The notes: a model not told the origin generated them from the sequence alone. Shown: positions 1 to 32,044, numbered from the stretch's first letter. The stretch is DNA of 64,000 nucleotides from Carcharhinus amblyrhynchos (GCA_965287045.1 OZ336885.1:65968001-66032000), one strand, 5' to 3'. Made by a program: numbers and translations.

Positions 1-29
1 CGGTCGTAAGCAACTAGAAATAATTTGCT

Positions 30-680
30 CAATAAAATACAAGATGGACAGCCTGAAAAGTTCTATCGAAAGAACTACAGATCAGAAGCTAGGAATATTA
101 CAACGACTGAGCCTACCTCTGACTCCCCGTTGGGAACGAACATCGGCAAGTTTCAAGTCAATACGTGATGGAATAATCCGCAATGTTTAAATGAAGACAC
201 CTCTCACCACTCTTAACGAGGTCGACACCATCCATGGCAAATTATCTCATATTATTGAAAGCCGGCCTTTTGTGATGAAGATTACCTCAGCCAATACCAA
301 CACAGTGGCTGCAGTTTGTATCTTGTAATAGGTACACTGCGGAACATTAACAATGTTCGTCGATGACATCTTCCACCAGCCTGCACTGAACTGCCAAGAA
401 GACTAAAGCAATAGATGTATGCAGATAACGTCATCTGCAATTTACCCTCCACGATAAAAGCCACCCTGACATTGAACAATATCAAACACAAATTATCTGG
501 CCATCTTCGTAATTCTGGACGTCGCTTCATAACAACAATGAACGTGTAACGAATGACGAACAATGTGCGTGTGCACTGAAGCATTTCAATAAGTCAGCTC
601 ACTAACATCTGTTCAATGGAACTTAGGGATGCCCAATACATATTTGCAATTCATAGTTCATGAACACGTCAAAGAACTCG
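30..680 (+). mobile_element. Degenerate LINE 3' fragment (copies at ~10340-10990 and ~20585-21235)
   Basis: Resembles from memory the 3' end of a common elasmobranch LINE (gtgatggaata..., caccctgac...aatatc, ttagggatgcccaata); many stops; boundaries approximate. Confidence 0.6.
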
Positions 681-2888
681 TGTTCTTCCAGAAAATCCTG
701 TATTTTTCTTCAGCGAACATTTGAAATCGATAATGTCAGACTTTAATTTGATAAGGGCACATAACGCAACACAAATATGCTGGCAAGATCCCACATAAAT
801 ATGAACAACTCTATCAAGTGTTATTTTATCTACAACTTCCATTAAAAAAGAATCCAGATTCATCGGCGCGACATTTCAGCAGATGCCCCTCAGTGTTGGC
901 TTCTCCTTTTGTATACGCACCTGCTCCTCTCCAATGCACTTTTTAATTGAAAAAAAAACTGTTTCGTTGAACAAATATAGAACATCTCTCCCTCAATTCG
1001 ATCTATTTCAGGATGTACATGTCCAAATCTCTGCCTCCCCCATTGAGCAATTTACATTTTACTTTGATGTTCTTTCACAGAGCTCTGAGGCAGATATTTC
1101 CCCTGCTTTTCCGATTCCGTCATCTAACAGTTATGCTAGAATCAGAGCCTGCAGTAGTCTTTAACATACCGATGATATTTGCATGTAGTTTACGACTGCA
1201 TATCTGTGTAGATTAGAGAACAATTCACTTCCGCAGTGAGCTGTAACATCAGAAAATTGTGATAACAATAAAGTAAATTCTCCCAGTTGTTCTTTCGGAA
1301 TTTTTTCCAGCTTTGCATAGATAAGTCTAATTTTTAGTTCTTTCGATGACGGTATGTTACAGAAAGGCTGCAAGGAACTGTCTCTGATTATCAATAAAAC
1401 CACGGGACAGGATGATATTATACTAATATCATTGTATGCCTTTTGAACAATTTTAACAAAAATTCTGAAAATATTGTAAACGAAAGAAAATATATCACTC
1501 TTGAAGCAATCTGCCACCCCGTCTGCTGCAACACCTTTGCTATTCCAGAACGGCAGTTATCTGAGTCATTTCAATTGCTCGCATGGACTTCTACATCAAA
1601 AAAAAAATCAATTGTGAGCGACCCTCACATTCCATGAACAGAAATAAAACTGTTTTGAGCGTCTATGTTGATTTCTTATTTAGCTTGGTGTTCTCGTCCA
1701 AAGTGCCTTGTCCGCATGCATTTGCTCTCCCACAGCCAATGCAGCAGTTCTAATATTGTCATCGTTTCAAAATTCAAACATTATTTCCATGTCTTCTAAG
1801 TATTGTAAATATTGCATCATTGTACAGCCGCAACAGCTTGTGAGGTCACCTTTTTTTTTCCATATCACAACGTATATCATACTAATCAGCAGTATATAGC
1901 AGACCTGTCATACGAGAAGTCAGTCTGGTCAGTCTGTCTGCACTCCCCCGTAACAAGATATAATTTTAGCGAAGCAACCAAATGGCACAAAATACGACAG
2001 ACGGAGCCACACCAATGTCCTAAACATTAGCAGTAAAACATGCTTATTCCTATTCTCAAATCTTCACGCTATGAAGGCCAGGATGCTATTGGCCCTCTTT
2101 TTGTTGCCCGCTTTACTTGTGACCTTGGCTCCAACGACCGATATGCGTCTCGGTGACTATTAAACTCTCTAATTGATATCCATTTAAACAATAATCTGCA
2201 CTTCGTTTTGCAATTGAGTTGCTTATGCTCAAACTTCATCGCATTATGCTGCATCTGGCATAGAGCTGTCCACTCAGGCAGCCAAATGTGATAATAGATT
2301 ACAATTATGCGATAACAGATGAAGTTCCCTCTCCAAGATCCTTAAAATGAACAGTTGTCTTACGATTCCAGGTCCCAGCGGCAATCCACCATTCTATGAC
2401 TGTCAAATGAAAGAAATGTTTATTCTTAATCTTTGCTTGTCGTCTCCCAAAAAAGTTTACTTTCGTCTCATCGCATCACCAGCAATCCCATACGCTTTAC
2501 TTTCAGATATTCATCCGCTAATTGATGGCTGTTGCAAGCCGTTTTACAAGAATAACCGTTCACAGCCACGGGTTTTTTCAGGTCAAAAGCACTACCTGCA
2601 GTCTCAAAGAATTTCAGTGGGTCTGTCAAGCGTATTTTGCCTTCTGTAAATACATGCTGCCTTTGTGTGATAAGAACGGAAATGCCCAGCTATGGAATGC
2701 TGTGCTGCGAAATAATTGATAATGTACTCAACATCATCCAGAACAGTGTCGTTAGGATCAGTGTTCCACCATGTCCCTACCTCGCTTCTTGAACCGCAGG
2801 TTAACATTTACTACACTCCGATACATTGGAAACATTCCAGAGTCCACACAATTTTCAAAAACGATCACCAATTATTTATTATGCTCAG

Positions 2889-2897
2889 GCCACTTTC
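2889..2897 (+). CDS. Possible 9-nt micro-exon (xHF); copy at 13175-13183
   Basis: ttattatgctcag|GCCACTTTC|gtaagt, conserved in both units, frame-neutral. Confidence 0.3.
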
Positions 2898-3657
2898 GTA
2901 AGTATTCAGAGTGAAGGTTCGCAGGTGCTGGGCATAAATATGAGTACAATTCCATTGTTTTCACGAAAAACATGGCTCGACTAATTCTGAGATCCTTCAA
3001 TTGTTCAGTAAAACTTGTGTTTCTCAGAACTTTCCATGCCATTTTCGTGCATCCCTTTAATAATTCAGGAGACAGGTACGAATTTCAATCTTCATCCTTT
3101 TATTTGGCTTTTATCGTGAATTTATATGTTTAAGAATTGAAGAGGCAGATACTCGTTTTTTTTTGCCAATCTAGTACCTCTTTACAAAGCTATGCAGGCA
3201 TTTTCAGTCAGTTTTTGTGTTCCCCGCCATGTTACATTTGTGCTCTATTTTGCGCTCCTGGAATCAATACAGTGTTTCACCTTTGCTGAACTGTAAGCTG
3301 CTCCGAAACACGTCAATTGCTCTTATTCAGCTACTTTAATTGCTATTTACTTGTCTGTAATACTTCCTCTAATTTCCTTCATACCCTGTTTTGAGCTTTG
3401 AAACTCGAAAAAGGAAAAAAAATTCCAATATTGAAACATTGCTGAAATAAGCAAAAGAGGACACGTGATTCCCATAGCTTGGCCGCTCGCTCTCTCTCTC
3501 TCTCGCTCTCTCTCTCGACGCACTTGCTTTCCACGATATGCTCACTATGCTGAATTTGTCGTAGCTTGTTCATTAACGTTCTACCCAAAATCCTCGGCTT
3601 TCGCTTTTGGCCTGTTCGTGCATTACACAAATCAAAATCAATCGTTTTGTTTTCTAG

Positions 3658-3693
3658 ATCTTGACAAACGGAATGACGATCTGAAAAACCCAG
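3658..3693 (+). CDS. 36-nt phase-1 exon, (H/D)LDKRNDDLKNP
   Basis: gttttgttttctag|...CCCAG|gtgaga; only the phase-1 frame lacks a stop. Confidence 0.75.
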
Positions 3694-4004
3694 GTGAGAG
3701 TTAGAACATTTCATCTGTCACAATGTAAACATGCATCATGGTACACCAGAAGAGCGATTTTCCCCAGATTTACAGCAACTTGGCAATATTACTGTTGAAT
3801 TTGATAATTCTCATCAGAACATTTGGATTTGTTTCCAATGATTACGTGACCCTACCAAATCGACTTTGAATACATATAATTTCCCTTAGAGACTCTTCAT
3901 TGAAGCGCAATGCTTTATATATATATATATATTATATATGACACTGAGAAGTAACAGATACTACCACTGACCACGTTTTTTCCAAAACAAATACCACAGA
4001 AATA

Positions 4005-5650
4005 TAGAAACTATGTGCAGGAATCGGGCATTCTGCCCTTCGATCCTGTAGCACCTCTCAACATGATCGTGGCTGATCATGCAATTTCGGTATCCCACTC
4101 CCCCTTTGTGTTCATACCCCTTGATTCTTTTAGCTGCCAGGGCCTCGTTCAGCTCCCTCTTGAACATATTGGACAAATTGGCACCACATCTTCCTCTGAT
4201 CGAAAACATTGCAGGTTCACTAGTCTGACAAGTTCTTCTTCCAAATTCTGAATGGATAAACCTCTATGTTTAGTCTGTGTCCCCTACATCTGCATTTCCC
4301 AAAAGAAGTAGAGTATCAGTTCCGCATCAAGCTTGTTGAGTCCAATCAGGATTGTATATATTTTTCTTTCTGCCTGAGATTTCCACACATTCTTCTGAAC
4401 TCCAGTGAATACAAACTTTGTCGATCCAGTTTCACCTCAGATGCCAGTCCTGCACTCCAGGAATCCGTCTGATGAACTTGGGGTGGAGTCCACCAGCGGC
4501 AGAAAATGTCCCTCCTCAAGCTAAGAACTCTGAACTGCACACAATAGTCATGGTGTTTCCTCATCAAGGCCGATATAACTACAGCAGGAAATCATTGCTC
4601 CTCCGCTTGCATCATCTTCTGACGGATACCAGCATGCTAGTAGATTTTCTCAGTGCCTGCAGTACCTGCAAAACAATCTTCAGTGAATGTTCCATCATAA
4701 ATCCCAGGTCACATTGCACTGGCCATTGTCTTAACCTGCGGCAATTCAGATAAAAATCTTCCTTTTTGACACCAAACTGAATACCTTCACATTCAGCCAC
4801 AATGTTGTCTATTATTGCTCCATTGTGTTGTATTTGAGACTATGTTTCCACTCAGGCATTCTGTCCATGTCATCCATTAGCCACTGATCATCTTCTTCAC
4901 AGCATACGTTGCCATCCGCTAATTGACATCTGTAAGTTTGGAGAGATTGCATTAATTTTCATTATCCAAATCATTAATGTGTACTGTGAATTGCTGGGAC
5001 CCCGACACTGAATCTTTCGTATCGCTATTTCACTGCTGCCACTTGGAAAACAACCCACTTATTCTTACGTTTTGTGTACTATTTGTCAACCAGTTCTCTA
5101 TCCATAATACAGTATGCCCAATTTCGTGAGTTTTTGGTTCGGTCATTAATCTTGGGCTTGTCAAAAGAATTTTGAAAGTGCTGGTGCATAACGTCCACTG
5201 GTTAACCCTTTTTCTAACCTACTTCTCATATCCTCACGCAAATGTAGAAGGTTAGTCAATCTTGATAGCCCATTGGCATGTCAATGCTGATTTCAGCCAA
5301 TCCTGTCACCGCTTTCCAAATGCTCATTTATTGCATCCTTAATAATTGAATTCTACATTTTTCCCCACAATTGATATTAGGCGAATTGGTCTATAATCGC
5401 ACCCCCCGCCTTTATTTTTCTCTCTCTTGTTTTGTTTTAATTATGGATTTACAACAGCTATCGTCCAATCAACTTGATTTCGTCCAGAATTTATAGAATA
5501 CTTTACGATTATTATCAATGCATTCAGTGTTTCTCGGGCCACTTCCTTTAAGTACATTTTGTTGCCACACATCAGGCCCTGATGAAGTGTTTGGTTTCAT
5601 TCGCAGCAAGTTCCCCAAACTAGTATCCTGACTAATAAGGATTTCATTTG
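4005..5650 (-). mobile_element. Degenerate CR1 LINE fragment (RT 3' part); duplicate at ~14265-15930
   Basis: Minus-strand ORF remnants WIENWL..., QFTVHINDLD...KLAD, YCVQF...LRRDI, LYSLEFRRMCGNL typical of CR1 RT C-terminus; boundaries approximate. Confidence 0.85.
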
Positions 5651-6799
5651 TTTTCAATTGTCCATTAAAATTTCACCTGATTAAGATCTTATGATAAGTC
5701 CTCAAGTCTCTCCCGAAGATTAACGGGGGATATAATTTGGATTTGTTTCTGATTGTGTTGAATTTAAAAATACTCAACATTTTCCTGAATATAGTGGAAA
5801 AAAATGAACACCCAAGTGACTGTATTGCCAAATCACTGACCATGTTCCTTCGAGAGTATGGAAAGTGCGACACCTTTGAAACTTAACATTCATAAACATC
5901 ATACAAGTATGTTTGCAAGTCAATTGGATGATTTTCCTAACACGCTGAAATTAAAATAGATTCCTCCCTGACTGGAGGCTGCAATTCATGTCGAAGTGTA
6001 CGATTAAATCTTGTTAAGCTCAACTAATGAAAGGCGACACTGAAATAGAGGCATGAGAGTTTTCACCTTATGATACTTGAATTGCTACGGAAATTGGATC
6101 GTCAAACAGGTCCTTCGTTTGTGCTTGTGAGATTTGTCTGTAAACAAGCAACTGCAGCAAAAAAGACGTTTGCCTTGGAACGAAGTTAAAAACATTAATC
6201 TATACGCCTCCCATTAATTAATTCTGCAGATGTATCATTACGCTAGTTTGTTTTGAACTAACTGTGGGCAGGTCGGACAAACGATACCTGATGGGATATT
6301 GACACTTGCTGTTGCTGTCCAGAATGACTTTCAAAGGCAACAATCCTGACTTTCACACGCACATCAATTATTTCGACATTTTTAAAAGATCACTTTAAGA
6401 ATACATTTCGTTGTCTCACTATTTCGCAATTTCAAGATATGATGTGTTTTTAAACATAAGATTAAAAAGTGACGCTGAGTAATACTAAGGGCGTGTTAGT
6501 GCTGTGCGCATAAAGTATTCAAACGCTCTTATGGAGGAAGACAAGGGGCAGAATTATACGGGCACGCCCGGCCGAGGTTCGTACGATCCAGCCCAAGACC
6601 AAAAGAGAATTCTGGAAAATTCGGGCCAAAGTCTCAAGTTATTCCAACACATGCATCGTGAGTTTTCAATAAAAATAAAAGATAGATCTGTCGTTTTGCC
6701 TGCACGGATCTTATTTCGAGTATTGGGACACTTCCTGTCCCTTCACGAACTATATCTGATCAAAAGATCGCCGCTCAACACCCCAATACTTCACACCTT

Positions 6800-6800
<1 letters not shown>

Positions 6801-6882
<82 letters not shown>
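6801..6882. repeat. (GT)n microsatellite
   Basis: About 41 GT units seen directly. Confidence 0.99.
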
Positions 6883-6886
<4 letters not shown>

Positions 6887-7648
6887 AAAAATATGATCAA
6901 GCTTACAATGAACTGGCGAGTATTAACTCGGTATGTACAACCACACACCTATTGAAAAAGTTAATGATCCTTAGGTTTGTTAAATTCTTGAGTAAAATCG
7001 AAGGGCAACAAAGTCCATATAAGCATCTGTGCATTTTTAATGTCCAGAAGAATGGCGCCATAATTTATTGCAAAAATCGTGATGAAAACATGTGCTTGCC
7101 ACTGTTCATATTGCCCTTTGGCTGAGGGAAGTGTCCGATCTCTTTCATTAAAATATATCATGCAATTACCTATACTACTCAAAAAAAAACTGGTGATATT
7201 ACTCTTCACAAGGTCCCTTTCATTTCCTTTCCCCTTTTTTCAGGCCATCTGCAGTGGCTTAGTTTTTCCAAACTCAATCAGTGTTGAGTATCCGCCTCCT
7301 TAAAGTGAAATGTTGGCATGAATTCTCACATGCCAGCTTTTTCAAAGCTAAGAAGAATCATCAACGCAGGTGCAGTTCTGTACACAGGTCATTGGGCTGA
7401 AGCGGACTCGTGATTGAAAAAAAAAATCCCTAAATCTCACTCTCTTAGTCCTGTTATAAGAAATACATCGCTTAATTATTGGACATCGTTTTGTCGTTTT
7501 ATTTGTTAATTCGCATCTATATTGCACCTGCCCAAGAGTAAAACTTTTTAGGCCATTTGGAAATTTCACAAGATGCAATGTGCTATTGCAAATTAATGTC
7601 TTAATTTGAATAAGCCAGATTCTGCTTTAATGTTGTTTGTGTTTTTAG

Positions 7649-7684
7649 AAATGCAACTATGGGACGACCTTGCCAGCAAATTCG
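7649..7684 (+). CDS. 36-nt phase-1 exon, EMQLWDDLASKF
   Basis: ttgtttgtgtttttag|...TTCG|gtaagg. Confidence 0.75.
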
Positions 7685-8229
7685 GTAAGGCTAAACATTA
7701 TTAGCGACAATCATGTCAACACTTGTTATCCGTTGATGTTTGATTAATAACAGTACACAAGAAACTGAAAGTTTCGTACAAACATCTCAGTATTCAATTA
7801 CACCATTTTCAGATTCGTTCGACTGATTTTTTTTTTCATTTTATTACATCTGCCTGAGAGGTAAACTGTTCATTCATTTAACATCTCAGAAAAAGAAAAT
7901 GAAAGTGAATACAATTGAAGCTGCACGGCCAGACAAGTATTCGTGATCGAAAGTCCTTTGTGAACTGGGGGCTGCGTTCACTGGACAGACAGTCATATGT
8001 TGGGTGCCTCAGTAGAGGGGTAAGCATGTGCGAAATAGGTATTTAAGGGGAAAAATCGTAGTATGACACAGGCAGCAAAATAATACGTTCATATTCTGTC
8101 CCAAGCAATGATACAGTGATTTTTCACAACGATTGCCAAGGCATTGACAGGAGTCATGTGAACATTATCGGCGTGGAAATTCAAGACACGTCATCATTAT
8201 ATACTTAGAAGAGTATCATCAGCCGTAAG

Positions 8230-8338
8230 CAAAGAACAAAGAACAAAATCAGCCCGCCAGCAGGCCCTTCGGCCCAACGAGCCCGCGCCGCCGTCTCAAC
8301 ACCACCAGTCCCCCTCTCCACCCACGACCCCTGTCCCA
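8230..8338 (-). mobile_element. Short CR1-type 3'-end insertion present only in unit A
   Basis: aaagaacaaagaac tail plus caggcccttcggccc; missing at the equivalent unit B site (~18565 agtaaacttatccaaacc). Confidence 0.7.
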
Positions 8339-9114
8339 TATCCAAACCGAAGCTTAAGATTCAAGATGCCTGATAACCACTGAAGGCGGTGGTTTAATGT
8401 TTTGTTTGTTCAAAAACAAAACTGATAAACAAAATGCTGCATTATATATACTGAAGGGATTGGAGTGACGCTTGCGGTATCTTATCTTCCAATATCGGGG
8501 AGAAACAAAAAAGAAAACTATATTTACTGGGCTTAATATGGCTGTGCGACATTCACTTCAGGGCAAGTCCCCTCGAATGTTGTTTTTAGCTTGAGGGCAT
8601 AGAATGAAGTGACGTGAATGCACTCACATATCCACAAGAATTGTACAGGAAGGGCATTTGCAACACATCAGCGTGCAGCCGAGAAGGTGTGACGGGGATG
8701 GGGGAGGTGAGGGAGGGGATGGGGGGGTCGGGGTGGAGGTTAAAGGAGCAGGCTCCAAATCTGAAACAGCAGAAGGATTAGAGGGCTCGTTTTCAAGATG
8801 GAAATGATGAGGTTGTCTTGCTTTGCTCAGCCGTGCCTGATGCTCGAAATTTCAGGCCCAAAAAATGGCGGAGGCAAGCGATAACTCATTTCACTTGGGA
8901 TTTAGGACAGTAGCATTTGATGCATTCACAGACGAAAGACGTATTAAAAACAAGCAACAATAGTAAAACAGGCCGAATTTTCTGCACATGAAGCCAAACC
9001 CAATGTTCGGAAACTAGTATTTTTCTGTCGGAGCAGACTTTCTTACAAGAGCTTGTGGAATGTCTGCTGTTACCACGCATATAGATATGATAATATATTA
9101 TTTATCTCTTGCAG

Positions 9115-9150
9115 GAGAAACGTTGAACCCATCAAGTAGAGGTACTTTCG
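9115..9150 (+). CDS. 36-nt phase-1 exon, GETLNPSSRGTF
   Basis: tttatctcttgcag|...TTCG|gtaagt; only phase-1 frame open. Confidence 0.75.
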
Positions 9151-9713
9151 GTAAGTCGTGATCTGAGAATTTGGCACACAAAAATATGCTTTTGTTTTAG
9201 AAAGCAATACACAGAAACTTCATACCATGAACAATACATGGTATTCTCCTCCAAAAGGAAGAAACATGCCAAGTTGAAAGTTCAAAAGGAATTTGGAAAG
9301 AATCTGAGTTAGTACAAATATCAACTAAGTTATGCTTTAGACATTGCGATGTGCAGCCAATATCACTTAGTAAAAAAAATCTGTATTTTATAAATGTTTC
9401 AACTCGTACTTTCGATCATCACTGAAATAAAATGTGTATCTAAAATTATTCATTGAGCAAAAATTAAAATGCACTTCTAATTATTATGAAACATTAACAA
9501 ATGCTAAATATTGACTTGACTTCCTAAGTATTACAAAACTCAAGATGGTTAAACTGAATAAGTATTTGCGTCAGGACTGCATATGTTTGATTACGCATCG
9601 TCTAATTGGAATCTAACTAGCTCATATCATTTTATGAATGCGAATTTCCTTCAGGCCATTAAATATTCATGGCTGTTTCAAAAAAGCTGCCTCATTCAAT
9701 CATACGTAGCTAG

Positions 9714-9753
9714 AACTAATAGGAGGACCGAACGGGAAACGACGTTTACAGAA
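9714..9753 (+). CDS. 40-nt exon (phase 1 to 2), ELIGGPNGKRRLQ
   Basis: ctag|AACTAATAGG...CAGAA|gtgagt; with the next 32-nt exon sums to 72 nt and restores frame; acceptor weak in this copy. Confidence 0.5.
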
Positions 9754-10284
9754 GTGAGTTCAGTCAATGAAATTGTAAAGCTCACATAAGCCAGCAACAT
9801 GCTTAATGGGTGGTGTTAAGTTTTTGTTTTATGGAGGGTGAAGCCTGTGTCTGCAGCAGAGGAGACAGTGCAGGACATTGCAAACATCAAACCCTTCTTT
9901 GTTTATTATGTATCAGACTTTTTTGTACTTGCGTTATTCATTAATTGCAATGATATATTTTACGAACTGTTTATCAGATGGGAAGATTAATGTTTAACTT
10001 AACATTAACACAACGATTGATAGCACTTATTATCGAAACATTGAATCATTGCTTTCCCGAATGAGCGTAAATAGTCTTTTTTTTCAAACGCAAGTGTTTT
10101 TGCTGAATTTGAAATGAGCTTTTCAAGCCATTCCACCTCCCATTTTTTGCGACAGCGATTCCCTATTCTTAAAATAAAGCACTTTCTCGTTAATCAGTTT
10201 GAGCTGTAACATAGCCTACAGACCGTTGTTTGTCCCATGCCTATCTTTTTTTCTCTTCCCTGATTTGTTCTTCGCCCTCTCTAG

Positions 10285-10316
10285 GTTTGTTGTGTCGCAA
10301 ATGGTCTCCGACGGTC
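10285..10316 (+). CDS. 32-nt exon (phase 2 to 1), KFVVSQMVSDG; donor mutated GT to AT
   Basis: ttcttcgccctctctag|...GGTC|ataaga versus |gtaagc at positions 6 and 20560. Confidence 0.45.
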
Positions 10317-13300
10317 ATAAGAAAATAGAAATATTTCGCTCAATAAAATACTACAAAATACCTTAAAAGTTCTATCGAAAGAACTACAGATCAGAAGCTA
10401 GGAATATTTCAACGACTGAGCCTACCTCTGATTCCCCGATGTTAACGAACATCGGCAAGTTTCAAGTCAATACGTGATGGAATAATCCGCAATGTTTAAA
10501 TGAAGACACCTCTCACCACTCTTAACGAGGTCGACACCATCCATGGCAAATTATCTCATATTATTGAAAGCCGGCCTTTTGTGATGAAGATTACCTCAGC
10601 CAATACCAACACAGTGGCCGTAGTTTGTATCATGTAATAGGTACACTGCGGAACTTTAACAATGTTCGTCGATGACATCTTCCGCCAACGTGCACTGAAC
10701 TGCCAAGAAGACTAAAGCAAGAGATGAATGCAGATAACGTCATCTGCAATTTATCCTCCACGATAAAAGCCACCCTGACCTTGAACAATATCAAACACAA
10801 ATTGTCTGCCCTTCTTCGTAATTCTGGATATCGCTTCATAACAACAATGGACGTGTAACGAATAACGAACAATGTGCGTGTGCATTGAAGCATTTCAAGA
10901 AGTCAGCTCACTAACACCTGTTCAATGGATCTTAGGGATGTCCAATACATATTTGCAATTCACAGTTCATGAACACGTCAAAGAACTCATGTTCTTCCAG
11001 AAAATCCTGTACTTTTTTCAGCCATCATTTGAAATCAATAACGTCAGACTTTAATTTAATATGGAGATATATCGTAACACAAATTTGCTTGCAAGATCCC
11101 ACATAAATATGAACAACTCTATCAAGTGTTGTTTTATCTACAACTTCCATTTAAAAAAAGAATCCAGATTCATTGGCGTGAAATTTCAGCAGATGTCCCT
11201 CAATGTTGGCTTCTGTTTTGTATACGCACCCGCTCCTCTCCAATGCATTTTTTTTTCGAAAAAAAAGTTTCGTTGAATAAATATAGGACATCTGTCCCAC
11301 AATTCGATCTATTTCAGTAGGTACACGTCCAAGTCTCTGCCTCCCCCATTGTGCAATTTACATTTTATTCTGATGTTCATCCTTCACAGAGCTCTAAGGC
11401 AGATATTTCCGCTGATTTTCCCGATTCCGTTATCTTACAGTTATGCCAGTATCAGAGCCTGCAGTAGTCTTCAACATACCTATGATATTTGCATGTAGTT
11501 TACTCATGCATATCTGTGTAGATTACATAACAATTCACTTCCGCAGTGAGCTGTAACATCGGAAAATTGTGATAACAATAAAGTAAATTCTCCCAGTTGT
11601 TCTTTCGGAATTTTTTTCAGCTTTGCATAGATAAGTCAAATTTTTAGTTCTTTCGATGACGGTATGTTACAGAAAGGCTGCAAGGAACAGTCTCTGATTA
11701 TCAATAAAACCACGGGACAGGATAATATGATACTAATATAATTATATGCCTTTTGAACAATTTTAACAAAAACTCTGTAAATATTGTAAACGAAAGAAAA
11801 TATGTCACTATTGAAGCAATCTGCCATCCCCGTCTGCTGCAGCACCTTTGTTGTTCCAGGACGGCAGGTATCTGAGTCAGTTTCAATTGCTCACGTGGAC
11901 TTCCACCTGAAAAAACATATCAATTGTGAGCGACCCTTACATTCCACGAACAGAAATGAAAATGTTTTGAACATCTATGTTGTTTTCTTAAGTAGCTTGG
12001 TGTTCTAGCCCAAAGTGCCCTGTCCGCATACATTTGCTCTCCCACAGCCAATGCAGCAGTTGTAATATTCTCATCGTTTCAAAATTCAAACATTATTTCC
12101 ATGTCTTGTAAGTATTGTAAATATTGCATCTCTGTACAGCCGCCATCCGCTCGTGAGATCACCTTTTTCTTCCATACCACAATGTATATCATCCTAACCA
12201 GCAGCATATAACAGTCATGTCATACGAGAAGTCAGCCTGGTGAATGTGTCTGCACTCCCCCTCAACAAGATATTACTTTAGCTAAGAAACCAAATGGCGC
12301 AAAATACTGCAGAGTGAGCCACACCAACGACCTAAACATTTGCCGTAAAATATGTTTATTCCTATTCTCAAACCTTCACGCTGTGAAGGCCAGGATGTTA
12401 TTGGCCGTCTTTTTTTTTGCCCGCTTTACTGGCGACCTCGGCTCCAAGACTGATATACGTCTCGGTGACTATTAAACTCTCTAATTGATATCCATTGAAA
12501 CGATAATCTGCACTTATTTTTGCAATTGGGTTGCTTATCCTCAAACTTCATCACATTATGCTGCATCTGGCATAGAGCTGTCCACTCTGGCAGCCAAATG
12601 TTATAATAGATTACAATTATACGGTAACAGATTAAGTTACCTCTGCAAAATCCTTAAAATGAGCAGTTGTGTTACGATTCCAGGTCCTTGCGGCAATCCA
12701 CCATTCTATTACCGTCAAATGAAAGAAATGTTTATTCTTAATCTTTGCTTGTCGTCTACTAAACAGGTTTATTTTCATCACGTCGCATCACCAGCAATCC
12801 CATACGCTTTACCTTCACATGTTAATCCGCTAATTGATGGCTGTTGGAAGCCGTTTAACAAGTATAACCGATCACAGCCACCTGCATTCTTAAAGAATTT
12901 CAGTGGGTCTGTCAAACGTATTTTGCCTTCTGGAAATACATGCTGCCTTTGTGTGATTAGAACGGAAATGTCCAGCTATGGAATGCTGTGCTGCGAAATG
13001 ATTGATAATGTATTCAACAGCATCCAGAACAGTGTCGTTAGGATCATTGTTCCACCATGTCCCGACCTCTCTTCTTGAACCGCAGGTTAACATTTACTAC
13101 ACTCCGATAGATAAGACCCATTCCAGAGTCCACACAATTTTCACAACCGATCACCAATTATTTATTATTCTCAGGCCACTTTCGTAAGTATTCAGAGTAA
13201 GGTTCGTAGGCGCTGGGGATAAATATGAGTACAAAACCATTGTTTTCATGAAAAGCATGGCTCGACTAATTCTGAGTTCCTTCAACTCCTCAGTAAAACC

Positions 13301-13926
13301 TATGTTTCTCAGAACATTCCATGCCATTTTCATGCACCCCTTTAATAATTCAGAAGAGAGGTACGAATTTCAATCCTCATCCTTTTATTTGACTTTATCG
13401 TGAATTTATAGGTTTAAGAATTGAACAGGCAGATACACGTTGTTTTTTCCCAATCTAGTACCTCTTTACAAAGCTACATAGGCATTTTCAGTCAGTTTTT
13501 ATGTTCCCCGCCATGTTACATTTGTGCTCTATTTTGCGCCCCTGGAATCAATACAGTGTTTGACCTTTGCTGAACTGTAAGCTGCTCCGAAACACGTCGT
13601 CAATTGCTCTTATTCAGCTACTTTAATTGCTACTCACTTGAATGTAATACTCTCTTTAATTTCCTTCATACACCGTTTTGAGCTTTGAGACTTGCAAAAT
13701 GAAATAATTTCCAAATTGAAACATGACTGAAATAAGCAAAAGACGATACGTCATTCCCATAGCTTGGCCGCTCTCTCTCTCTCTCTACGCGCTTGCTTTC
13801 TACGATATGCTCACTATGCTGAATTTGTCGAAGCCTGTTCATCAAAGTTCTACCCAAAATCCTCGGCTTTCGCTTTTGGTTTTTTCATACATTACATAAA
13901 TCAAAATCAATCGTTTTGTTTTCTAG

Positions 13927-13962
13927 ATCTAGGCAAACGCAATGACGATCTGAAAAACCCAA
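13927..13962 (+). CDS. 36-nt phase-1 exon, xLGKRNDDLKNP (unit B)
   Basis: ttttgttttctag|...CCCAA|gtgaga; only phase-1 frame open. Confidence 0.7.
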
Positions 13963-16900
13963 GTGAGAGTTAGAACATTTCATCTGCCACAATGTAAACA
14001 TGCATCATGATACAGCGAAAATGCGATTTTCCCAGGATTTGCAGCAGCTTGGCAATATTTACTGTTGAAGTTGACAACTTTCATCAGAAAACTTGGAGTT
14101 GTTTCCAATGATTACGTGACCCTACCAAATAGACTTTGAATACATGTAATTTCCCTTAGAGACTCTTCAATGAGGCGCAAAGTTTTTTTTTAATATTTAT
14201 TACACAAAAAGTAATACACACTACCACTGAACACGTCATTCCAAAAAAAACATAATAACACAGAAATATGGAAACTATGTGCAGGAATCGGCCCTTCTAT
14301 CTTGTCATACCTCTCAACATGATCATGGCTGATCATGCACTTTCACTATTCCACTCCCCCTTTATGTTTATATCCCCTGATCTGTTTAGCCGCAAGGACC
14401 TCGTTCAGCTTCCTCTTGAACATATGGGACAAATTGGTACCAACAGCTTCCTGTGATCGAATACTCCGCAGCTTCATTACTCTGACAAGTTTTTCTTCCA
14501 AATTCTGAATGGATAAACCTCTATGTTTAGTCTGTGTCCGCTACATCCGCACTTCCCCCCAGAAAATAAGAGAGTATCATTCCCGCGTCAAGCTTGTTGA
14601 GTCCAATCAGGATTGTGTATATTTTTCTATCTTCCTGAGATTTCCACACATTCTTCTGAACTCTAGTGTATACAAACTTTGTCGATCCAGTTTCACCTCA
14701 GATTCCAGTCCTGCACTCCAGGAATCCGTGTGATGAACCTGGGGTGGAGTCCACCAGCCGCAGAAAATGTCCCTCCTCAAGCTAAGAACTCTGAGCTGCA
14801 CACAATAGTCATGATAATTCTTCAGGAAGGCCTCGAACCTGCAGCAAGAAATCATTGTCCCTCCACTTACATCATTTTCTGACGGATACCAGCATGCTAG
14901 TAGATTTTCTCAGTGACTGCAGTACCTGCAAAACAATCTTCGGTGAACGTTCCATCATGAATCCCAGGTCACATTGCACTGGCCATTGTCTTAAACTGCG
15001 GCAATTCAGATAAAAATCTTCCTTTTTGACACCAAACTGAATACCTTCACATTCAGCCACTATGTTGTCCATTATTGCTCCATTGCGTTGTATTTGCGAC
15101 TATGTATCCACTCAGGCAGTCTGTCCATGTCATCCATCAGCCAGTGGTCATCTTCTTCACAGCATACATTGTCATCAGCTTATTGACATCTGCAAGTTTG
15201 GAGAGATTGCATTTGTTTTCATTGTCCAAATCGTTAATGTGTACTGTGAATTGCTGGGATCCCGACACTGAATCTTTCGCATCCCTATTTCGCTGCTGCC
15301 ACTTGGAAAACAACCCATTTATTCCCAATTTCTGCGTACTCTTTGCCAACCAGTTCTCTATCCATAACACAGCATCCCCAATTTTGTGAGTTTTGGGTTT
15401 GGTTATTAATCTTGGGCTTGTCAAAAGAATTTTGAAAGTGCTGGCGCATAACGTCCACTGGTTACCCCTTTTTCTAACCTACTTCTCATATCCTCACGCA
15501 AATGTAGAAGGCTAGACAATCTTAATAGCCCATTAGCATGCCAATGGTGGTTCCAGCCAATCCTGCCACCACTTTCCAAATACTCATTTATTCCACCCTA
15601 AATAACTGACTTCTACATTTTTCCCCACAATTGATATTAGGCAAATCGGCCTATAACCGCCCCCCCACCCCCCCTCTTTATTTTTCTCTCTCCCTCGTTT
15701 TTTTTGTTTTAATTATGGATTTACATTAGCTATCTTCCAATCAACTGGAGTTTATCCAGAATTTATAGAATACTTTACGATTATTATCAATGCATTCAGT
15801 GTTTCTCGGGCCACTTCCTTTGAGTACCTTTTGTTGCCACACATAAGGCCCTGGTGAAGTGTTTGGTTTCAATCGCAGCAAGTTCCCCAAACTAGTATCC
15901 TGACGAATAAGGATTTCATTTGTTTTCAGTTGTCCATTAAAATTTCACCCGATTAAGATCTTATGATAAGTCCTCAAGTCTCTCCCGAATATTAACTGGG
16001 AATATACTTTGGAATTTTTTCTGATTGCGTTGAATGTAAAAATGCTCAACATTTTACTGAATAAATGGAAAAAATGAACGTCATATTGAGGGAAGCAAAT
16101 TAAACGTACCGCATCCATATTTGACAATCAATGCTCCAAGTGACTGCATTGCGAAATCACTGACCATGTTCCTTCGAGAGCATGGAAAGTGCGACACTTC
16201 TGCAACTTAACATTCATGAACACCATACAAGTATGTTTGCAAGTCAATTGCATGATTTTCTAAAGACGCTGAAATTAAAATAGATTGCTCCCTGACTGGA
16301 GGCTGCAATACATGTTGAAATGTATGATTAAATCTTGTTAAGCTCAACTAATGAAAGGCGACACTGAAATAGAGACATGAGAGTTTTCACCTTCTGATAC
16401 GTGAATTGCTTCGGAAATTGGATATCCAAGCAGGTCCGACGTTTGCGCTTGTGAGATTTGTCTGCAAAGAAGTAACTGTAGCGAAAAAGACGCTTGTCTT
16501 GGAACGAAGTTAAAAACAAATACATTAATCTATATGCCTCCCATTAATGGAATCTGCTGATATATCATTAAGCTGGTTTTCTTTGAACTAACTGTGGGCA
16601 TGTCGGACAAACGATGCCTGATGTGATATTGACACTTGCTATTGCTCTCCAGAATGACTTTCAAAGGCAACAATCCTGACTTTAACACGAACATCAATTA
16701 TTTCGACATTTTTAAAAGATCACTTTAAGAATACATTTCGTTGTCTCACTATTTCGCAATTTCAAGATATGATGTATTTTTAAACAGTTGATATCAAGAT
16801 AAAAAGTGACCGTGAGTAATACTAAGGGCGTGTTAGTGCTGCGCGCATGAAGTATTCAAACGCTCTCATCTAGGAAGACAATGGGCAGAATTATACGGGC

Positions 16901-17119
16901 ACGTCCGGCTGAGGTTAGTACGATCCAGCCCAAGACCAAAAGAGAATTCTGGAAAATTCGGGACAAATTGTCAAGTTATTCCAACGCGTGCATCGTGAGT
17001 TTTCAACAAAAAAAATAGATCTGTCGTTTTGCCTGCACGGATCTTATTTCGAGTATTGAGACACTACCTGTCCTTTCACGGACTATGTCTGAACAAAAGA
17101 TCGCTACTCATCACCCGAA

Positions 17120-17255
17120 NNNNNNNNNNNNNNNNNNNNNNNNNNNNNNNNNNNNNNNNNNNNNNNNNNNNNNNNNNNNNNNNNNNNNNNNNNNNNNNNN
17201 NNNNNNNNNNNNNNNNNNNNNNNNNNNNNNNNNNNNNNNNNNNNNNNNNNNNNNN
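17120..17255. other. Assembly gap (136 N) where unit A has the (GT)n microsatellite
   Basis: Run of N; flanks match ~6770 and ~6900 of unit A. Confidence 0.98.
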
Positions 17256-17992
17256 TAAAACTTACAATGAATTGGCGAGAATTAACTCGGAAGGTACAAC
17301 CACATAACTATTGAAAAACTTAATTAACCTTAGGTTTATTAACTTTCCGAGTAAAATCGAAGGGCAACAATGTCCATATAAGCATCTGTACATTTTTAAT
17401 GTCCAGAAGACATAAATTATTGTAAAAATCGTGATGAAAACATGTGCTTGCCACTGTTCATGTTGTCCTTTGGCTGAGGGAAGTGTCCGATCTCTTTCAT
17501 TTAAATATATCATGCAATTTCCTAACTACTGAAAAAAATAAACTGCTGATATTACTCTTCACAAGGTCCCATTCATCTACTTTCCCCCTTTTTTCAGGCC
17601 ATCTGCACTGGCTTAGTTTTTCCAAACTCAATCAATATTGAGTACCCGCCTCCTTAAACTGAAATGTTCGCATGAATTCTTATATGCCACATTTTTCAAA
17701 GCTAAGAAGAAACTCCAATTCTATACATAGGTCATTTGGATGAAGCTGACTCCTGATTGCAAAAATAAGTCCCTAAATCTCACTCTCTCAGTTCTGTTAT
17801 AAGAAATGCATCGCTTAATTAGTGGACATTGTTTTGTAGTTTTATTTGTTAATTGACATCTATATTGCACTTTGCCCAAGAGTAAAACTTTTTATGTCAT
17901 TTCAAAATTTCAGAAGATGCAATGTGCTATTGCAAATTGAAGTCTTAATTTGAATACGCCAGATTCGGCTTTAATGTTGTTTGTGTTTTTAG

Positions 17993-18028
17993 ATATGCAA
18001 GTATTGGACGACCTTGTCAGCAAATTCG
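17993..18028 (+). CDS. 36-nt phase-1 exon, (N/D)MQVLDDLVSKF (unit B)
   Basis: ttgtgtttttag|...TTCG|gtgagg. Confidence 0.72.
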
Positions 18029-19357
18029 GTGAGGCTAAACATTATTAGCGACAACCATGTCAACACTTGTTATCCGTTGATGTTTGATTAATAACAGTAC
18101 ACAAGAAACTGAAAATTTCTTACAAATATCTCAGTACTCAATTACATCAGTTTCAGATTCGTTCGACTGATCTTTTTTTTATTTCATTACTCCTACCTGA
18201 GGGATAAACTGTTCATTCTTGAAACAGCTCAGAAAAAAAAAGTGAATGCAATAGAAGCTACACGGCCAGCCAAGTATTCGTGATCGAAAGTCCTTTGTGA
18301 TCTGGGTACTGCCTTCAGTGGACAGACAGTCATATGTTGGGTGCCTCGGTAGAGGGGTATGCATATTCAAAATAGGTATTTAAGGGAAAAAATCGTAGCA
18401 TGACACGGGCAGCAAAATAATACGTTCATATTCTGTCCCAAACAATAATACAGTGATTTTTCACAACGATTGCCAAGGCATTGACAAGAGTCATGTGAAC
18501 ATTATCAACGTCGAAATTCAAGACACGTCATCATTATATACTTAGAAGAGTATCATAAGCAGTAAACTTATCCAAACCGAAGCTTAAGATTCAAGATGCC
18601 TGATAACCACTGAAGGCAGTGGTTTTATTTTTTGTTTGTGCAAAAGCAAAACTGCACAAACAAAATGCCGCATTTTATATGCTGAAGGGATTGGGGTGAC
18701 ACATGCCGTATCATATCTTCCAATAGGGGGGAGAAACAAAAAGAAAACTATATTTATTGGGCATAATATGGCTGTGCTACGTTTACTTCTGGGCAAGACC
18801 CATCGAATGTTTTTTTTAGCATGAGAGCATAGAGCGAAGTGACGCGAATGCACTCATATATCTACAGGAATTGTCAAGGAAGGGCATTTGCAACAAATCA
18901 GCGGGCAGCCGAGAAGGTGTGACGGGGATAGGGGGTGGGGGAGGGGGTGAAGGAGGCGGGGGGGGCGGTGGGAGCTTGGTGGAGATTGAAGGATCAGGCT
19001 ACAAATCTGAAACAGCTGAAGGATTAGAGGGCACGTTTTCAAGATGGAAATGATGAGATTGTCCTGCCTTTGCTCAGCCGTTCCTTCCACTCGAAATTTT
19101 AGGCCCAAAATTGGCGGAGGCAAGCGATACTGATTTCATTTGGGATTCAGAACAGTAGCATTTGATGCATTCACAGACGAAAGACGTATTAAAAACAAAC
19201 AACAATCGTAAAACAGGCCGAATTTTCTGCACGTGAAGCCACACCCAATGTTCGGAACGTCGTTTTTCTGTTGGAGCAGGGTTTCATACAAACGTTTATG
19301 GAATGTCTGCTGTTGCCGCGCATATAGATGTGATAATATATTATTTATCTCTTGCAG

Positions 19358-19393
19358 GAGAAACGATGCACCCATCAAGTAGAGGTACTTTCG
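19358..19393 (+). CDS. Unit B copy of 36-nt exon GETMHPSSRGTF; donor lost (GT to GA), in-frame cryptic GT at 19385
   Basis: ctcttgcag|...TTCG|gaaaaa; AGAG|gtactt would give a 27-nt exon. Confidence 0.5.
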
Positions 19394-19957
19394 GAAAAAT
19401 CATTACCTGAGAAAATTGGCACACAACAATATGTTTTTTTTTAGAATGCAATGAACAGAAACTTGATACCATGAAGAATGCATGGTACTCTCCTCCAAAA
19501 GGAAGAAGCATGTCAAGTTGAAAGATCAAAAGGAATTTGGAAAGAATCTGAGTTAGTACAAAGATCAATTAAGTATTGCTTTAGACATTGCGATGTGCAG
19601 CCAATATCAATTAGTAAAAGAAATCTGTATTTTATAAATGTTTCAACTCGTAGTTTCGATCATCGCTGAAATAAAATGTGTATCTAAAATTATTCATTGA
19701 GTAAAAATTAAAATACACTTTTAATTGTTACAAAACATTAACAAATGCTAAATATTGACTTGACTTCCTAAATATTACAAAACTCAAGATGGTTCAACTG
19801 AAAAAGTGTTTGCGTCACGACTGGATATGTTTGATCATGCGTAGTTCAGTTGGAACCTAACTAGTTCATATCACTTTATGAATACGAATTTCCTTCCGGC
19901 CATTAAATATTCATGGCTGTTTCAAAAAAGCTGCCTCATTCAATCATATGTATCTAG

Positions 19958-19997
19958 AACTAATAGGAGGACCGAAAGGGAAACGACATTTACAGAA
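19958..19997 (+). CDS. 40-nt exon (phase 1 to 2), ELIGGPKGKRHLQ
   Basis: tcatatgtatctag|...CAGAA|gtgagt. Confidence 0.55.
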
Positions 19998-20527
19998 GTG
20001 AGTTCAGTCAATGAAATTGTAAAGTTCACATAAGCCAGCAACATGCTTAATGGGTGGTGTTAAGTTTTTGTTTTATGGAGGGTGAAACCTGTGTCTGCAG
20101 CACAGGAGACAGTGCAGGACAATGCAAACATCAAACCCTTCTTTGTTTATTATGTATCAGACTTGTTTGTACTTGCGTTATTCGTTAATTGCAATGATAT
20201 ATTTTACGAACTGTTTATCAGATGGGAAGATTAATGTTTAACTTAACATTAACATAACGATTGACAGCACTTATTATAGAAACATTGAATCATTGTTTAA
20301 CCGAATGAGCGTAAATAGACTTTTTTTTTCAAAACGAACTGTTTTTGCTGAATTTAAAATGAGCTTTTCAAGCCATTCCACCTCCCATTTTTTTGTGCCA
20401 GATGTTCCCTATTCTTAAAATAAAAGGCTTTCAAGTTAATCAGTTTGGCTGTTTCAAAGTCTACAGACGGTTGTTTGTTCCATGCCTATCTTTCTCTCTT
20501 CCCTGATTTGGTCTTCGCCCTCTCTAG

Positions 20528-20559
20528 GTTTGTCGTGTCGCAAATCGTCTCAGACGATC
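20528..20559 (+). CDS. 32-nt exon (phase 2 to 1), KFVVSQIVSDD
   Basis: gtcttcgccctctctag|...GATC|gtaagc. Confidence 0.6.
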
Positions 20560-21503
20560 GTAAGCAAATAGAAATAATTTGCTCAATGAAATACAAGGTG
20601 GACAACCTTAGAAGTTCTATCGAAAGAACTACATATCAGAAGCTAGGAATATTACAACGACTGAGCCTACCTCTGATTCCCCGATGTTAACGAACATCGG
20701 CAAGTTTCAAGTCAATAGAGTGATGGAATAATCCGCAATGTTTAGATGAAGACACGTCTCACCACTCTTAACGAGATCGACACCAACCAAGGCAAATTAT
20801 CTCATATTATTGAAAGCCGGCCTTTTGTGATGAAGATTACCCCAGCCAATACCAACACAGTGGCCGTAGTTTGTATCATGTAATAGATACACGGCGGAAC
20901 TTTAACAATGTTCGTCGATGGCATCTTCCACCAACGTGCACTGAACTGCCAAGAAGACTAAAGCAAGAGATGTATGCAGATAACTTCATCTGCATTTTAT
21001 CCTCCACTATAGAAGCCACCCTGACTTTGAACAATATCAAACACAAATTGTCTGGCCTTCTTTGTAATTCTGGATGTCGCTTCATAACAACAATGGACGT
21101 GTAACGAATAACGAACAATGTGCGTTTGCACTGAAGCATTTCAAGAAGTCAGATCACTCACACCTGTTCAATGGAACTTAGGGGTGCCCAATGCATATTT
21201 GCAATTCATAGTTCATGAACACGTCAAAGAACTCATGTTCTTCCAGAAAATCCTGTACTTTTTTCAGCCATCATTTGAAATCGATAACGTCAGACTTTAA
21301 TTTGATAAGGACACATAACGTAACACAAATATGCTTGCAAGATCCCGCATACATATGAGCCACTCTATCAAGTGGTATTTTATCTCCAACTTCCATTAAA
21401 AAACACAATCCAGGCTCATCGGCGTGAAATTTCAGCAGATGTCCCTCAGTGTTGGCTTCTACTTTCGTATACGCAACTGCTCCTCTCCAATGCATTTTTT
21501 TTC
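20555..21503. repeat. Partial third unit C
   Basis: Matches unit A 1-~945, then similarity stops after ccaatgcattttttt. Confidence 0.93.
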
Positions 21504-21880
21504 GACTGCGTTCCAATCCTGCTTCGATGAAAAAAAACACTCGGGCAGGATTGGAATGCAGTCATCCTGTTGTCACAGAACCAGCCATCTCTTTATGAAC
21601 AATACATCTCTCCTTTTTTTGTTTCCAAATCTATGTTAATATTGTTTGTAACTGTGAAACTTCTGAACAGTGGCAATAAATGTCAGAGTGCAGCTGTGCG
21701 CATAAGCTGACCCTTCGGACGATGTTCAGCATATCATTTTCAAATCAGACGTGACAGGTTAGAGATCTCTGGTTGTTCCCGTTTAAAAAAACATCTTGGG
21801 CTCGCAGGAAACTGCCTTCCCTTGCTATAGTGTTTGAAGGCACTCTGCCCATGCCCAGTTTCTTTTTTTTTACTGTTCAG

Positions 21881-21916
21881 GTGCATATTTAGCGGATGGG
21901 CAATTCGTTTAGTTCG
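21881..21916 (+). other. 36-nt exon-like unit with in-frame stop (xAYLADGQFV*)
   Basis: tttctttttttttactgttcag|...TTCG|gtgagt; TAG in phase-1 frame. Confidence 0.45.
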
Positions 21917-24900: not shown

Positions 24901-24934
24901 GTTGTTTTAGCTCGCGGAAGCCAAATGACATTTT

Positions 24935-25475
24935 TGGCCGCACTTGGAACATAGTGATCAATTTGTCACATCACTAGAAGGATATGAAGACTTTGGATAC
25001 GATCCAAAAAAAAAGTCAGGTTGTTTCCTGGTATGGAGGGCATTAGCTATGATGAGAGGTGGAGAAAGTCGACTTGTTCTCACTGAAATGTTGGAGGTTG
25101 AGGGGCGATTATGAGATTATGAGAGGCATGGACATAATAGATAGAAGCTTTTTCAAAGGGTGGAAGAATCAATTATCAGGGGGCACTGGTTTTACATGCG
25201 AGGGACAAGATTTAAAGGAGATGTACGAGGCAGATTTTTTTTTTAAACAGGGAGTACTGGGTGTCTGGGATTCATTGCCAGGAGAGATAGTGGAAGCGGA
25301 TAAGTTAGTGCAATTTAACGGGCATCTTAACAAATACATGAATAGGATGGAAATAGAGGTGTGTGGTCCCGGAAGGGTAGGGGGTTACATGCCAATCGGG
25401 CAGCTTAGTCAGCGCAGGCTTGAAGGACTGGAGGGCTTGTTCCATTGCCGTAATTTCCTTTGTTCTTTGTTCTTT
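24935..25475 (+). mobile_element. CR1 LINE 3' end
   Basis: ORF remnant LFSL..RLRGD.YEIMRGMD; FFKQGVLGVWDSLPGEIVEA; ends in ttctttgttctttg tail. Confidence 0.88.
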
Positions 25476-26424
25476 GACAATTGGCCTCAGTGCGTGTTCT
25501 CAATACCTCGTGTTGCATTAAGACAAACGTACAGAAGTTCACCGCTCCTTAAATCATTCCGCTCCGAAAAGTTCTGCTTCCGAGTCCAAAAGTATATGGT
25601 CTTGAAACCCTTGTCCTAGACCGGGGTAAGAATAGTAACGTCAGGCCAGATGAGCGTAAATAGCAGCGGAGAACTAAATATATATGGCTGTGTTAGAGCG
25701 AGTGGGCGAACACGACCACTACGGACTCAGACTCAGGTTCAACGGCGGTACAACTTTATTTTAACGTCGACGGAGATGCAATCAGGACATACAAACAGAA
25801 CTGACCCGAAAGCACTCTAAAGGCCCGCCGCAATGGGCTACAGTTACACTCGAACTTTGACACGTTGTATGATTCAAATGTTAATGTTTTGTTTACAGTG
25901 TCTGTCCATTCTGTTTCGATGTTTTCAAGTGTCGTATTGATGTTTTATGTATAGTAATCGTTTCTCTTTGATGGCTCTATCAATGGTCTAGAAATGGGGT
26001 TTCTTGAACAATGCGTATTTGGCTGATCTCAGGAAATCTTTTGAGGCCAAGAAGGCTTCCTTAGTTTTGTTAATCCTTAGGTGTCTCTGTAGAGGTTTTC
26101 TGATGTCACTTGATTAGGTCAGTGGTGCGGACGATTAGTTGAGGGTGTACTTTTAATTTAGTTTCTGTTGGTGCCATCCTATCCGATTCCCATTGTGTGT
26201 TAGCTCTTGTTTGCATTTTAAAAGCGTGCGTTTTGCCTGCTTCTCTGGATCTGTTTCTTTGCGGTCCTTAGTGGGGGGGGTTCCGAGTGCAGTTTTAGTC
26301 TGTTTCCATATTGTATACCTAATTTCAGAAAGTCTGTTGCCTGATAACAATTGCATTCGCCTTATATAGCAGAGATGCTGCTTTTCATCAATAAGTACAT
26401 TTGTATCTCGTCCTTTTCGAATAG

Positions 26425-26451
26425 GGGCCAAAGAAGCAATGGAGAAACTTT
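26425..26451 (+). CDS. 27-nt phase-1 exon, xAKEAMEKL
   Basis: tccttttcgaatag|...CTTT|gtaagt. Confidence 0.65.
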
Positions 26452-32017: not shown

Positions 32018-32044
32018 CCCAATATATAGAAAGAAGTAAAGATG
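32018..32044 (+). CDS. 27-nt phase-1 exon, SQYIERSKD
   Basis: tcttcgtaattttacag|...GATG|gtaaat; only phase-1 frame open. Confidence 0.65.

Follow-up and report, generated by a model that had tools for sequence, protein, structure and literature searches.

According to one review (PMC3449122), partial duplicates are common among young gene duplicates and are often, but not always, dead. The elasmobranch scpp genes are reported to have arisen from sparc-L when its 5′ exons were duplicated locally in tandem (PMC9122587), and tandem families of the secreted-protein gene spp2 exist in cartilaginous fish (PMC13188829). Here, we analyzed a stretch of 64,000 nucleotides from Carcharhinus amblyrhynchos (OZ336885.1:65968001-66032000; the whole stretch is called the window in the following, with positions counted from its first letter), which contains a tandem repeat with a unit of about 10.3 kb and a set of very small candidate exons in each unit. 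We consider it fairly probable that this repeat is an old tandem triplication (about three copies) of the promoter and the initial coding exons of an orphan gene, probably one for a secreted peptide. Ordinary gene duplication followed by decay, rather than growth of a protein by the addition of modules, is the most likely course of events.

The locus resembles partial (5′) tandem duplicates in the incomplete duplication of one ancestral gene, which leaves truncated copies; the strict definition requires an outgroup with the ancestral single copy (PMC3449122). By mechanism, the nearest published case in the accessible sources is scpp, which shares with the shark unit the duplication of a signal-peptide exon (a putative one in the shark) and the next small exons of a secreted-protein gene, with the 3′ part left out. 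The scpp genes have phase-0 introns, are acidic and SxE-bearing, have an age near 350 million years and are expressed (PMC9122587), whereas the shark unit has phase-1 introns (one phase 2), 0 SxE motifs, balanced charge (11 D+E versus 10 K+R in 67 residues) and a neutral divergence of 9%. Membership among the SCPP or sparc-L-derived genes was rejected on the absence of phase-0 introns and SxE sites. The likeness to spp2 is that a gene for a secreted protein was copied in tandem within a lineage of cartilaginous fish; spp2 has a cystatin-like domain with four cysteines (PMC13188829), and no exon of such size or content was found in the unit.

Self-BLAST of the window gave a direct tandem repeat with a period of about 10.3 kb and 88.7–92.0% identity over four blocks (1-6786 versus 10312-17119, 88.7%; 6899-8228 versus 17258-18565, 89.0%; 8339-11255 versus 18569-21502, 90.6%; 1-944 versus 20555-21500, 92.0%), which bears out the genomic duplication proposed in a first-pass annotation of this DNA. 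In a global alignment of 1-10311 with 10312-20554, the two complete copies, A and B, differ in 909 of 9,977 columns (9.1%; Kimura two-parameter distance 0.098) and by 59 indels, and the divergence is uniform along the unit (5.6–12.7% per 500 bp). Copy A also has an insertion of 107 nt of its own (8230-8336), which resembles repeat tails elsewhere in the window; the annotation was right that the units differ by many substitutions and a private insertion. The blocks are ordered X Y Z X Y Z X I Y′ W; the exons lie in Z, block I measures 9.3 kb and W is unique. In their natural register, all on the + strand, copy A spans 1169-11255 (core Z at 1169-10311, then X at 10312-11255) and copy B spans 11482-21502 (core Z, then X at 20555-21502). 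A third, upstream copy, P, is represented on the + strand at 1-7 by the last 5 nt of its exon 5 and an intact GT donor at 6-7.

Block X, the sequence after exon 5, first stands at 1-944 and differs by 7.0% and 7.7% from its two later copies. With 7.3% between these two, the three are equidistant, and they have 34, 30 and 36 differences of their own. Block Y (200 nt) follows X in the first two copies. The Y before copy A (973-1168) is homologous to ~11278-11478, from which it is 9.7% apart, and to 30771-30980. After the third X, Y appears only 9.3 kb further on, as Y′ (30771-30980), 11–12.5% from both Y copies, and here the unit homology stops. Block I (21503-30770) is found only after the last copy and has mostly single-copy depth, repeats excepted. 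At 6801-6882, copy A carries a (GT)41 microsatellite, and an assembly gap of 136 N (17120-17255) lies at the corresponding place inside copy B. We also observed that Y′ sits 2.2 kb before an exon candidate at 33154 that resembles exon 1, and that Y sits 2.5 kb before exon 1 in A; judged from these positions, Y could serve these genes as a 5′ element.

The number and relationship of the copies were assessed with contigs from four public DNA runs (X1, X3, X5 and X6, of 19 listed) placed on 17260-37250; run X1 may be the source sample and hence not independent. In the flanks, taken as long contigs outside the unit (25 of 32 records among those listed), differences from the window amount to 4/13,953 (0.03%) in X1, 40/13,905 (0.29%) in X3, 312/12,697 (2.5%) in X5 and 175/5,457 (3.2%) in X6. 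The ratio of unit depth to non-repeat flank depth is 3.1 in X1, 4.0 in X3 and 2.9 in X5 (6 unit bins and 14 flank bins, with 10 of 30 bins left out as repeat-filled or mixed). For X6, with its holed flanks, the ratio is 2.9 when one further repeat bin is left out, and about 1.5–2 against single-contig depths of 4.4–8.3. Read depth in individuals and relatives, which the annotation had named as a check, speaks for several copies, and both relatives (runs X5 and X6) also show more than one. Among the unit variant sites listed, A's base is present at 33 of 34 and a third allele at the remaining one. Letters of the A type and of the B type are each found at about full single-copy depth within one run, for example 17 of 33 at 19272 in X1, and single contigs span the junction of X and I in X1, X3 and X5.

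The copies are paralogues and not haplotypes, because A and B diverge by 9.1% against an allelic difference of at most 0.3% (near-identical samples X1 and X3) and the unit has about three to four times the depth of the flank; the three versions of X, 7.0–7.7% apart, agree with this, and the annotation's view that the repeat is no pair of haplotypes set in tandem holds. As the flanks differ by 0.03–3.2% and the copies by 9%, the duplication predates the splits from these relatives, and the age of the copies is some three to four times that of the separation from them. In run X6, two unit contigs at 17779-19413, among those listed, are about 7% and 11% from B, with flanks at 3.2%; this relative, sequenced at low depth, might perhaps lack a B-type copy or have fewer copies.

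Next, we looked at the exons of the unit. In both copies, exons 1–5 measure 36+36+36+40+32 = 180 nt, have phase 1 at both ends and are free of stops when joined. Exon candidates of 36 nt make up 7 of 30 on the + strand and 0 of 30 on the − strand, and those of 27 nt 3 of 30 and 0 of 30; with duplicates removed, the 36-nt excess is 5 of 23 (P ~0.0015, corrected for 65 lengths). There are 17 non-redundant candidates of 27 or 36 nt (22 rows minus 5 duplicate or nested); phase 1 is open in 15 of them, against 6 for phase 0 and 10 for phase 2. The excess of 36-nt exons and their openness in phase 1 therefore point to the presence of a gene of tiny phase-1 exons.

All exons of the unit lie on the + strand. 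In copy A, exon 1 (3658-3693, 36 nt, phase 1-1) holds a KR pair and is followed by exons 2 (7649-7684, 36 nt) and 3 (9115-9150, 36 nt); in all three, acceptor and donor rank in the top 4% of the AG and GT of the window. Exon 4 (9714-9753, 40 nt, phase 1-2) would encode a GKRR motif and combines a strong donor with a poor acceptor (top 44% of AG in A, 29% in B). Exon 5 (10285-10316) has a strong acceptor and, as an exon, a moderate donor, which in A is lost (AT at 10317-10318). The homologous exons of copy B are found at 13927-13962, 17993-18028, 19358-19393, 19958-19997 and 20528-20559. Here, exon 3 has lost its donor (GA at 19394-19395), so that read-through stops 5 codons into the intron, and exon 5 has an intact GT donor. 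By these features the small exons appear to be real, strongly so for exons 1–3 and moderately for exons 4–5. The frame-preserving module of five exons described in the annotation stands in its length, phase and openness in both copies; its intactness does not, given the lost donors of exon 5 in A and exon 3 in B.

Some smaller observations concern the same exons. By eye, a better-looking acceptor lies 59 nt upstream of exon 4 in A and would give a 99-nt exon (9655-9753) unfit for phase 1. The AG of this acceptor is CG in B (19899-19997); at 19897, both relatives have A's letter, and X5 has B's as well. A possible micro-exon of 9 nt (2889-2897 in A, 13175-13183 in B), also noted by eye, has a fair acceptor and a consensus donor 9 nt on in both copies. 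CpG is barely depleted for a vertebrate, with observed/expected ratios mostly of 0.5–1.0 per 500-bp bin of unit A and 38–73 CG per 2 kb across the window.

Each unit also includes what looks like the first coding exon of a gene. In A, this candidate is an ATG-led exon of 82 nt (2071-2152, + strand, phase 1) with a donor in the top 6.7% of GT. A hydropathy heuristic shows a basic N-region and a long hydrophobic run, ending at a phase-1 GT, as in a signal peptide. The exon lies 1.5 kb before exon 1, which it matches in phase, and 0.9–1.1 kb inside the edge of the unit; the possible micro-exon mentioned above falls between the two. Among 21 rows of candidates leading from an ATG to a phase-1 donor on both strands, it is the most hydrophobic. 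From 12 shuffles, 0.75 such exons are expected per 64-kb strand, 0.12 per unit and about 0.03 in the 2.7 kb before exon 1. In the B homologue (12383-12464, + strand), the first ATG has become GTG and the second, at 12395, is kept; one +1 and one −1 indel shorten the hydrophobic run.

A further exon follows the last copy only. Exon 6 (21881-21916, 36 nt, + strand) lies 380 nt into block I and contains an in-frame TAG at 21910-21912, 4 nt before the donor. Of all exon candidates in the window it ranks first, and its acceptor (top 0.1%) outranks every other one found. A stop just before the donor is normal for a penultimate exon, given nonsense-mediated decay. Exon 6 is probably the last coding exon of the ancestral gene, and would otherwise be a broken exon.

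If these exons belong together, the ancestral gene would have begun with a signal exon, followed by exons 1–5, exon 6 and its stop, and finally a non-coding exon. Its product of about 100 aa would probably have been a precursor for secretion, in which exon 1 supplied a KR site and exon 4 a GKRR site. A duplicated unit would hold 0.9–1.1 kb of upstream sequence, the ATG-led signal-like exon and the five small exons, and only the last copy, B, would continue into the stop-bearing exon 6. A likely route would start with a duplication of about 19.5 kb (Z-X-I-Y), after which the upstream copy would drop the 9.3-kb block I, and unequal crossing-over would double the shortened copy. An equally short alternative would be that a Y-Z-X unit was triplicated next to a Y-like block of greater age; the junction sequences are compatible with both routes. 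After duplication, the copies have evolved at the neutral rate, with A losing the exon-5 donor and B the first ATG, part of the signal core and the exon-3 donor.

The comparison of A and B is in line with such decay. Exon columns differ at 24 of 256 positions (9.4%) and the remaining columns at 885 of 9,721 (9.1%; Fisher P 0.83), and 2 of 22 splice-dinucleotide bases differ, with 2.0 expected at the intron rate. Over the five exons, pN is 0.087 and pS 0.103; there are 12 non-synonymous differences against 3.1 expected at an omega of 0.25, which is rejected at P 1e-4. The divergence between A and B is neutral, and therefore little selection holds them to one protein. Both complete copies lack one donor, that of exon 5 in A and that of exon 3 in B. 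In all, B carries three lesions (first ATG, hydrophobic core, exon-3 donor), and A has lost the exon-5 donor and has no exon 6. Judged from these differences, the gene is most likely under little constraint now, and it is likely that at most one copy works as the ancestor did.

Several points weigh against a decaying triplication of gene starts. The rest of copy P lies outside the window, with only 5 nt of its exon 5 inside, and contig depth is not true copy number and is taken only as "about three". The thresholds for the start exon were set after the exon had been seen, and its donor is moderate (score ~0.8, top 6.7%); a strict shuffle filter found nothing on the real window, this donor being just under the 0.8 cut. 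No TATA match was found in the 1 kb before the ATG. The splice scores come from approximate weight matrices. An omega of 0.5, as for one constrained and one free copy, is rejected only at P 0.027 with 39 synonymous sites, and fast-evolving secreted peptides can likewise show an omega near 1. Finally, it is the DNA sequence from which the whole gene reading, exon use included, is drawn.

In an alternative that we regard as unlikely, the units are separate small genes for secreted, dibasic-cleaved precursors. At least A, and perhaps P, would be functional, and the loss of the exon-5 donor would make exon 5 terminal after the loss of block I. Copy A indeed retains the ATG and the hydrophobic run, and as far as exon 4 its splice sites are all intact. 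Read on through exon 5, it gives an open frame of 103 aa with KR and GKRR intact, and with exon 4 skipped it gives 77 aa, ending at a TAG common to all three copies; B, too, retains KR and GKR. Polyadenylation would be served by AATAAA at 10342 and 11276, the latter missing from the other Y copies, but AATAAA is common (59 on the + strand of the window) and the one at 10342 precedes a phase-2 stop. Against functional separate genes stand the neutral non-synonymous divergence of A and B and the missing homologues of both the signal-like exon (30 candidates, E 10) and the exon-5 extension (4,662 candidates).

A more specific form of this idea, which is speculative and rather unlikely as a whole, is an undescribed peptide-hormone-like gene of cartilaginous fish. 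It would encode a precursor of about 100 aa on tiny phase-1 exons, with an amidated peptide of 38 residues flanked by KR and GKRR. Once the unit had been triplicated and had lost its 3′ end, A would have been rescued by the loss of the exon-5 donor and a new polyadenylation signal, and the 27/36-nt exons downstream would be older members of the family. In A, the KR and GKRR sites are about 38 residues apart, and B keeps KR and GKR. Peptide-hormone precursors are similar in their length of about 100 aa, a signal-like start and KR and GKRR sites. There may be a loose likeness to neuromedin U, PTH, urotensin I and adrenomedullin-2; the exon layouts of these families differ, and the predicted product of the unit has no cysteine ring.

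The first-pass annotation had proposed that one protein grows by 60 aa with every unit. In this model, one transcript would run from upstream through all units, the modules would be spliced in tandem, and copy number would set protein length, like an accordion. Symmetric phase-1 exons of small size, which can be duplicated without a shift of the frame, are known from the cytoplasmic heptad exons of chicken BG and from amphibian skin-peptide precursors. The module fits this pattern in being 180 nt long, in phase 1 at both ends and stop-free in A and B, and the frame can survive a detour around the lost donors: copy B would lose 36 nt with its exon 3, a cryptic GT 3 nt upstream in exon 5 of A would preserve the frame, and one such path gives an open frame of 144 aa ending in exon 6. 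However, this cryptic GT makes a poor donor (top 27.7%), and skipping exon 5 of A alone shifts the frame and meets a stop within 6 codons. The arrays of chicken BG and the skin peptides involve internal exons only and keep their splice sites, whereas the shark unit has a start-like exon and lost donors.

Run X6 gives a faint hint that copy content varies between species (no B-type letter at 19897, and the unit contigs 7% and 11% from B). Unlike in a rapidly changing accordion, about three copies are present in 3 of 4 runs and in two species. Purifying selection is not seen on exons or splice sites, exon divergence equalling intron divergence, and a start-like exon lies inside every unit. The last feature points to units with their own start, which the annotation itself had set against its proposal, rather than to an intragenic module. 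We consequently regard lengthening by 60 aa per unit as distinctly unlikely. The annotation had overlooked the signal-like exon, the lost donors, the stop-bearing exon 6, the Y′ block and the N gap. If the accordion were nevertheless true, it would offer one of the rare instances in which a repeat unit has an internal promoter and start exon and is yet read through.

The window contains further candidates for 27/36-nt exons downstream of the repeat, all on the + strand and open in phase 1, at 26425, 32018, 33154, 34046, 35873, 44486, 45159, 46232, 46351, 51869, 59013 and 61400 (span 26425-61426). Those of 36 nt resemble one another and exon 1 (33154 versus 59013, BLOSUM 20, P 0.0002 per pair); exon 1 resembles the 36-nt exons at 33154, 45159 and 59013, and candidate 46232 resembles 51869. 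This likeness suggests an older round of duplication, within one long gene or among several small ones. Two ATG-led, moderately hydrophobic phase-1 candidates on the + strand, at 22932-23001 (acceptor upstream at 22867) and 32042-32090 (acceptor upstream at 32018), are possible starts of neighbouring paralogues.

These exons raise the alternative of an intragenic duplication in a long gene of tiny exons, which would start upstream and run into the 27/36-nt exons at 26–61 kb. The signal-like exon would then be due to chance, and the extra modules and exon 6 would be dead or skipped. Exon 1 and candidate 59013 agree at 20 of 36 positions (P 0.0003 for a single pair, with 28 pairs compared), exon 1 and 33154 at 16 of 36. 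The prevalence of phase 1 (15 of 17 candidates open, versus 6 and 10 in the other phases) would fit as well, and about 0.12 signal-like exons per unit are expected by chance. Yet the signal-like exon is as expected in its position, phase and shape, the stop of exon 6 is in the usual spot for a penultimate exon, and the two further signal-like exons downstream suggest several small genes, so that one long gene seems improbable to us. Hardly credible is an assembly artefact with two haplotypes set in tandem: the N gap would allow the halves of B to be mis-joined, but three equidistant versions of X cannot be two alleles, the allelic-level difference is 0.03–0.29% versus 9.1% between copies, and A- and B-type letters both stand at about full single-copy depth in the same run (17 of 33 at 19272 in X1).

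If the repeat is a decaying partial tandem duplicate, as we hold most likely, it matters little in itself, such duplicates being common. It does caution that a frame-preserving set of exons in a repeat is not, taken alone, evidence of protein length variation. The remaining interest lies in the gene itself, an orphan cluster of 27/36-nt phase-1 exons with the layout of a secreted precursor, for which the protein searches carried out gave no match; should the gene be expressed and its product processed, it would represent a new peptide family. Protein searches are weak here, with coding stretches of 9–27 residues and unbroken pieces, not the spliced product, as queries. The signal-like exon with 12 upstream codons gave no homologue (30 candidates, none at E 10), which is weak evidence. 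For the exon-5 extension and block X, no Pfam family was found in 12 of 12 read-through frames and no homologue among 4,662 alignment candidates. A phmmer search of the exon-5 extension against 1.84 billion representatives returned 3 matches, long repetitive bacterial-type surface proteins with summed-repeat scores that we judged to be chance. The idea that block X is a decayed BEL/Pao integrase was dropped as unsupported by the Pfam, phmmer and alignment searches. Rfam gave 0 matches in the window, no recognisable neighbour gene lies in it, and a literature search, with most subscription papers outside its reach, found no paper on this gene.

Apart from the exons, the region downstream of the repeat contains mobile sequences. 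An inverted repeat of about 500 bp and 82.7% identity (36971-37473 and 37962-38462) is probably transposon-derived. Decayed elements of the long interspersed nuclear element type, in both orientations, and very high-copy repeats occur at 24600-25900, 35090-35750 and 40100-44100, and one fragment of such an element has a reverse transcriptase/endonuclease protein match at 72%.

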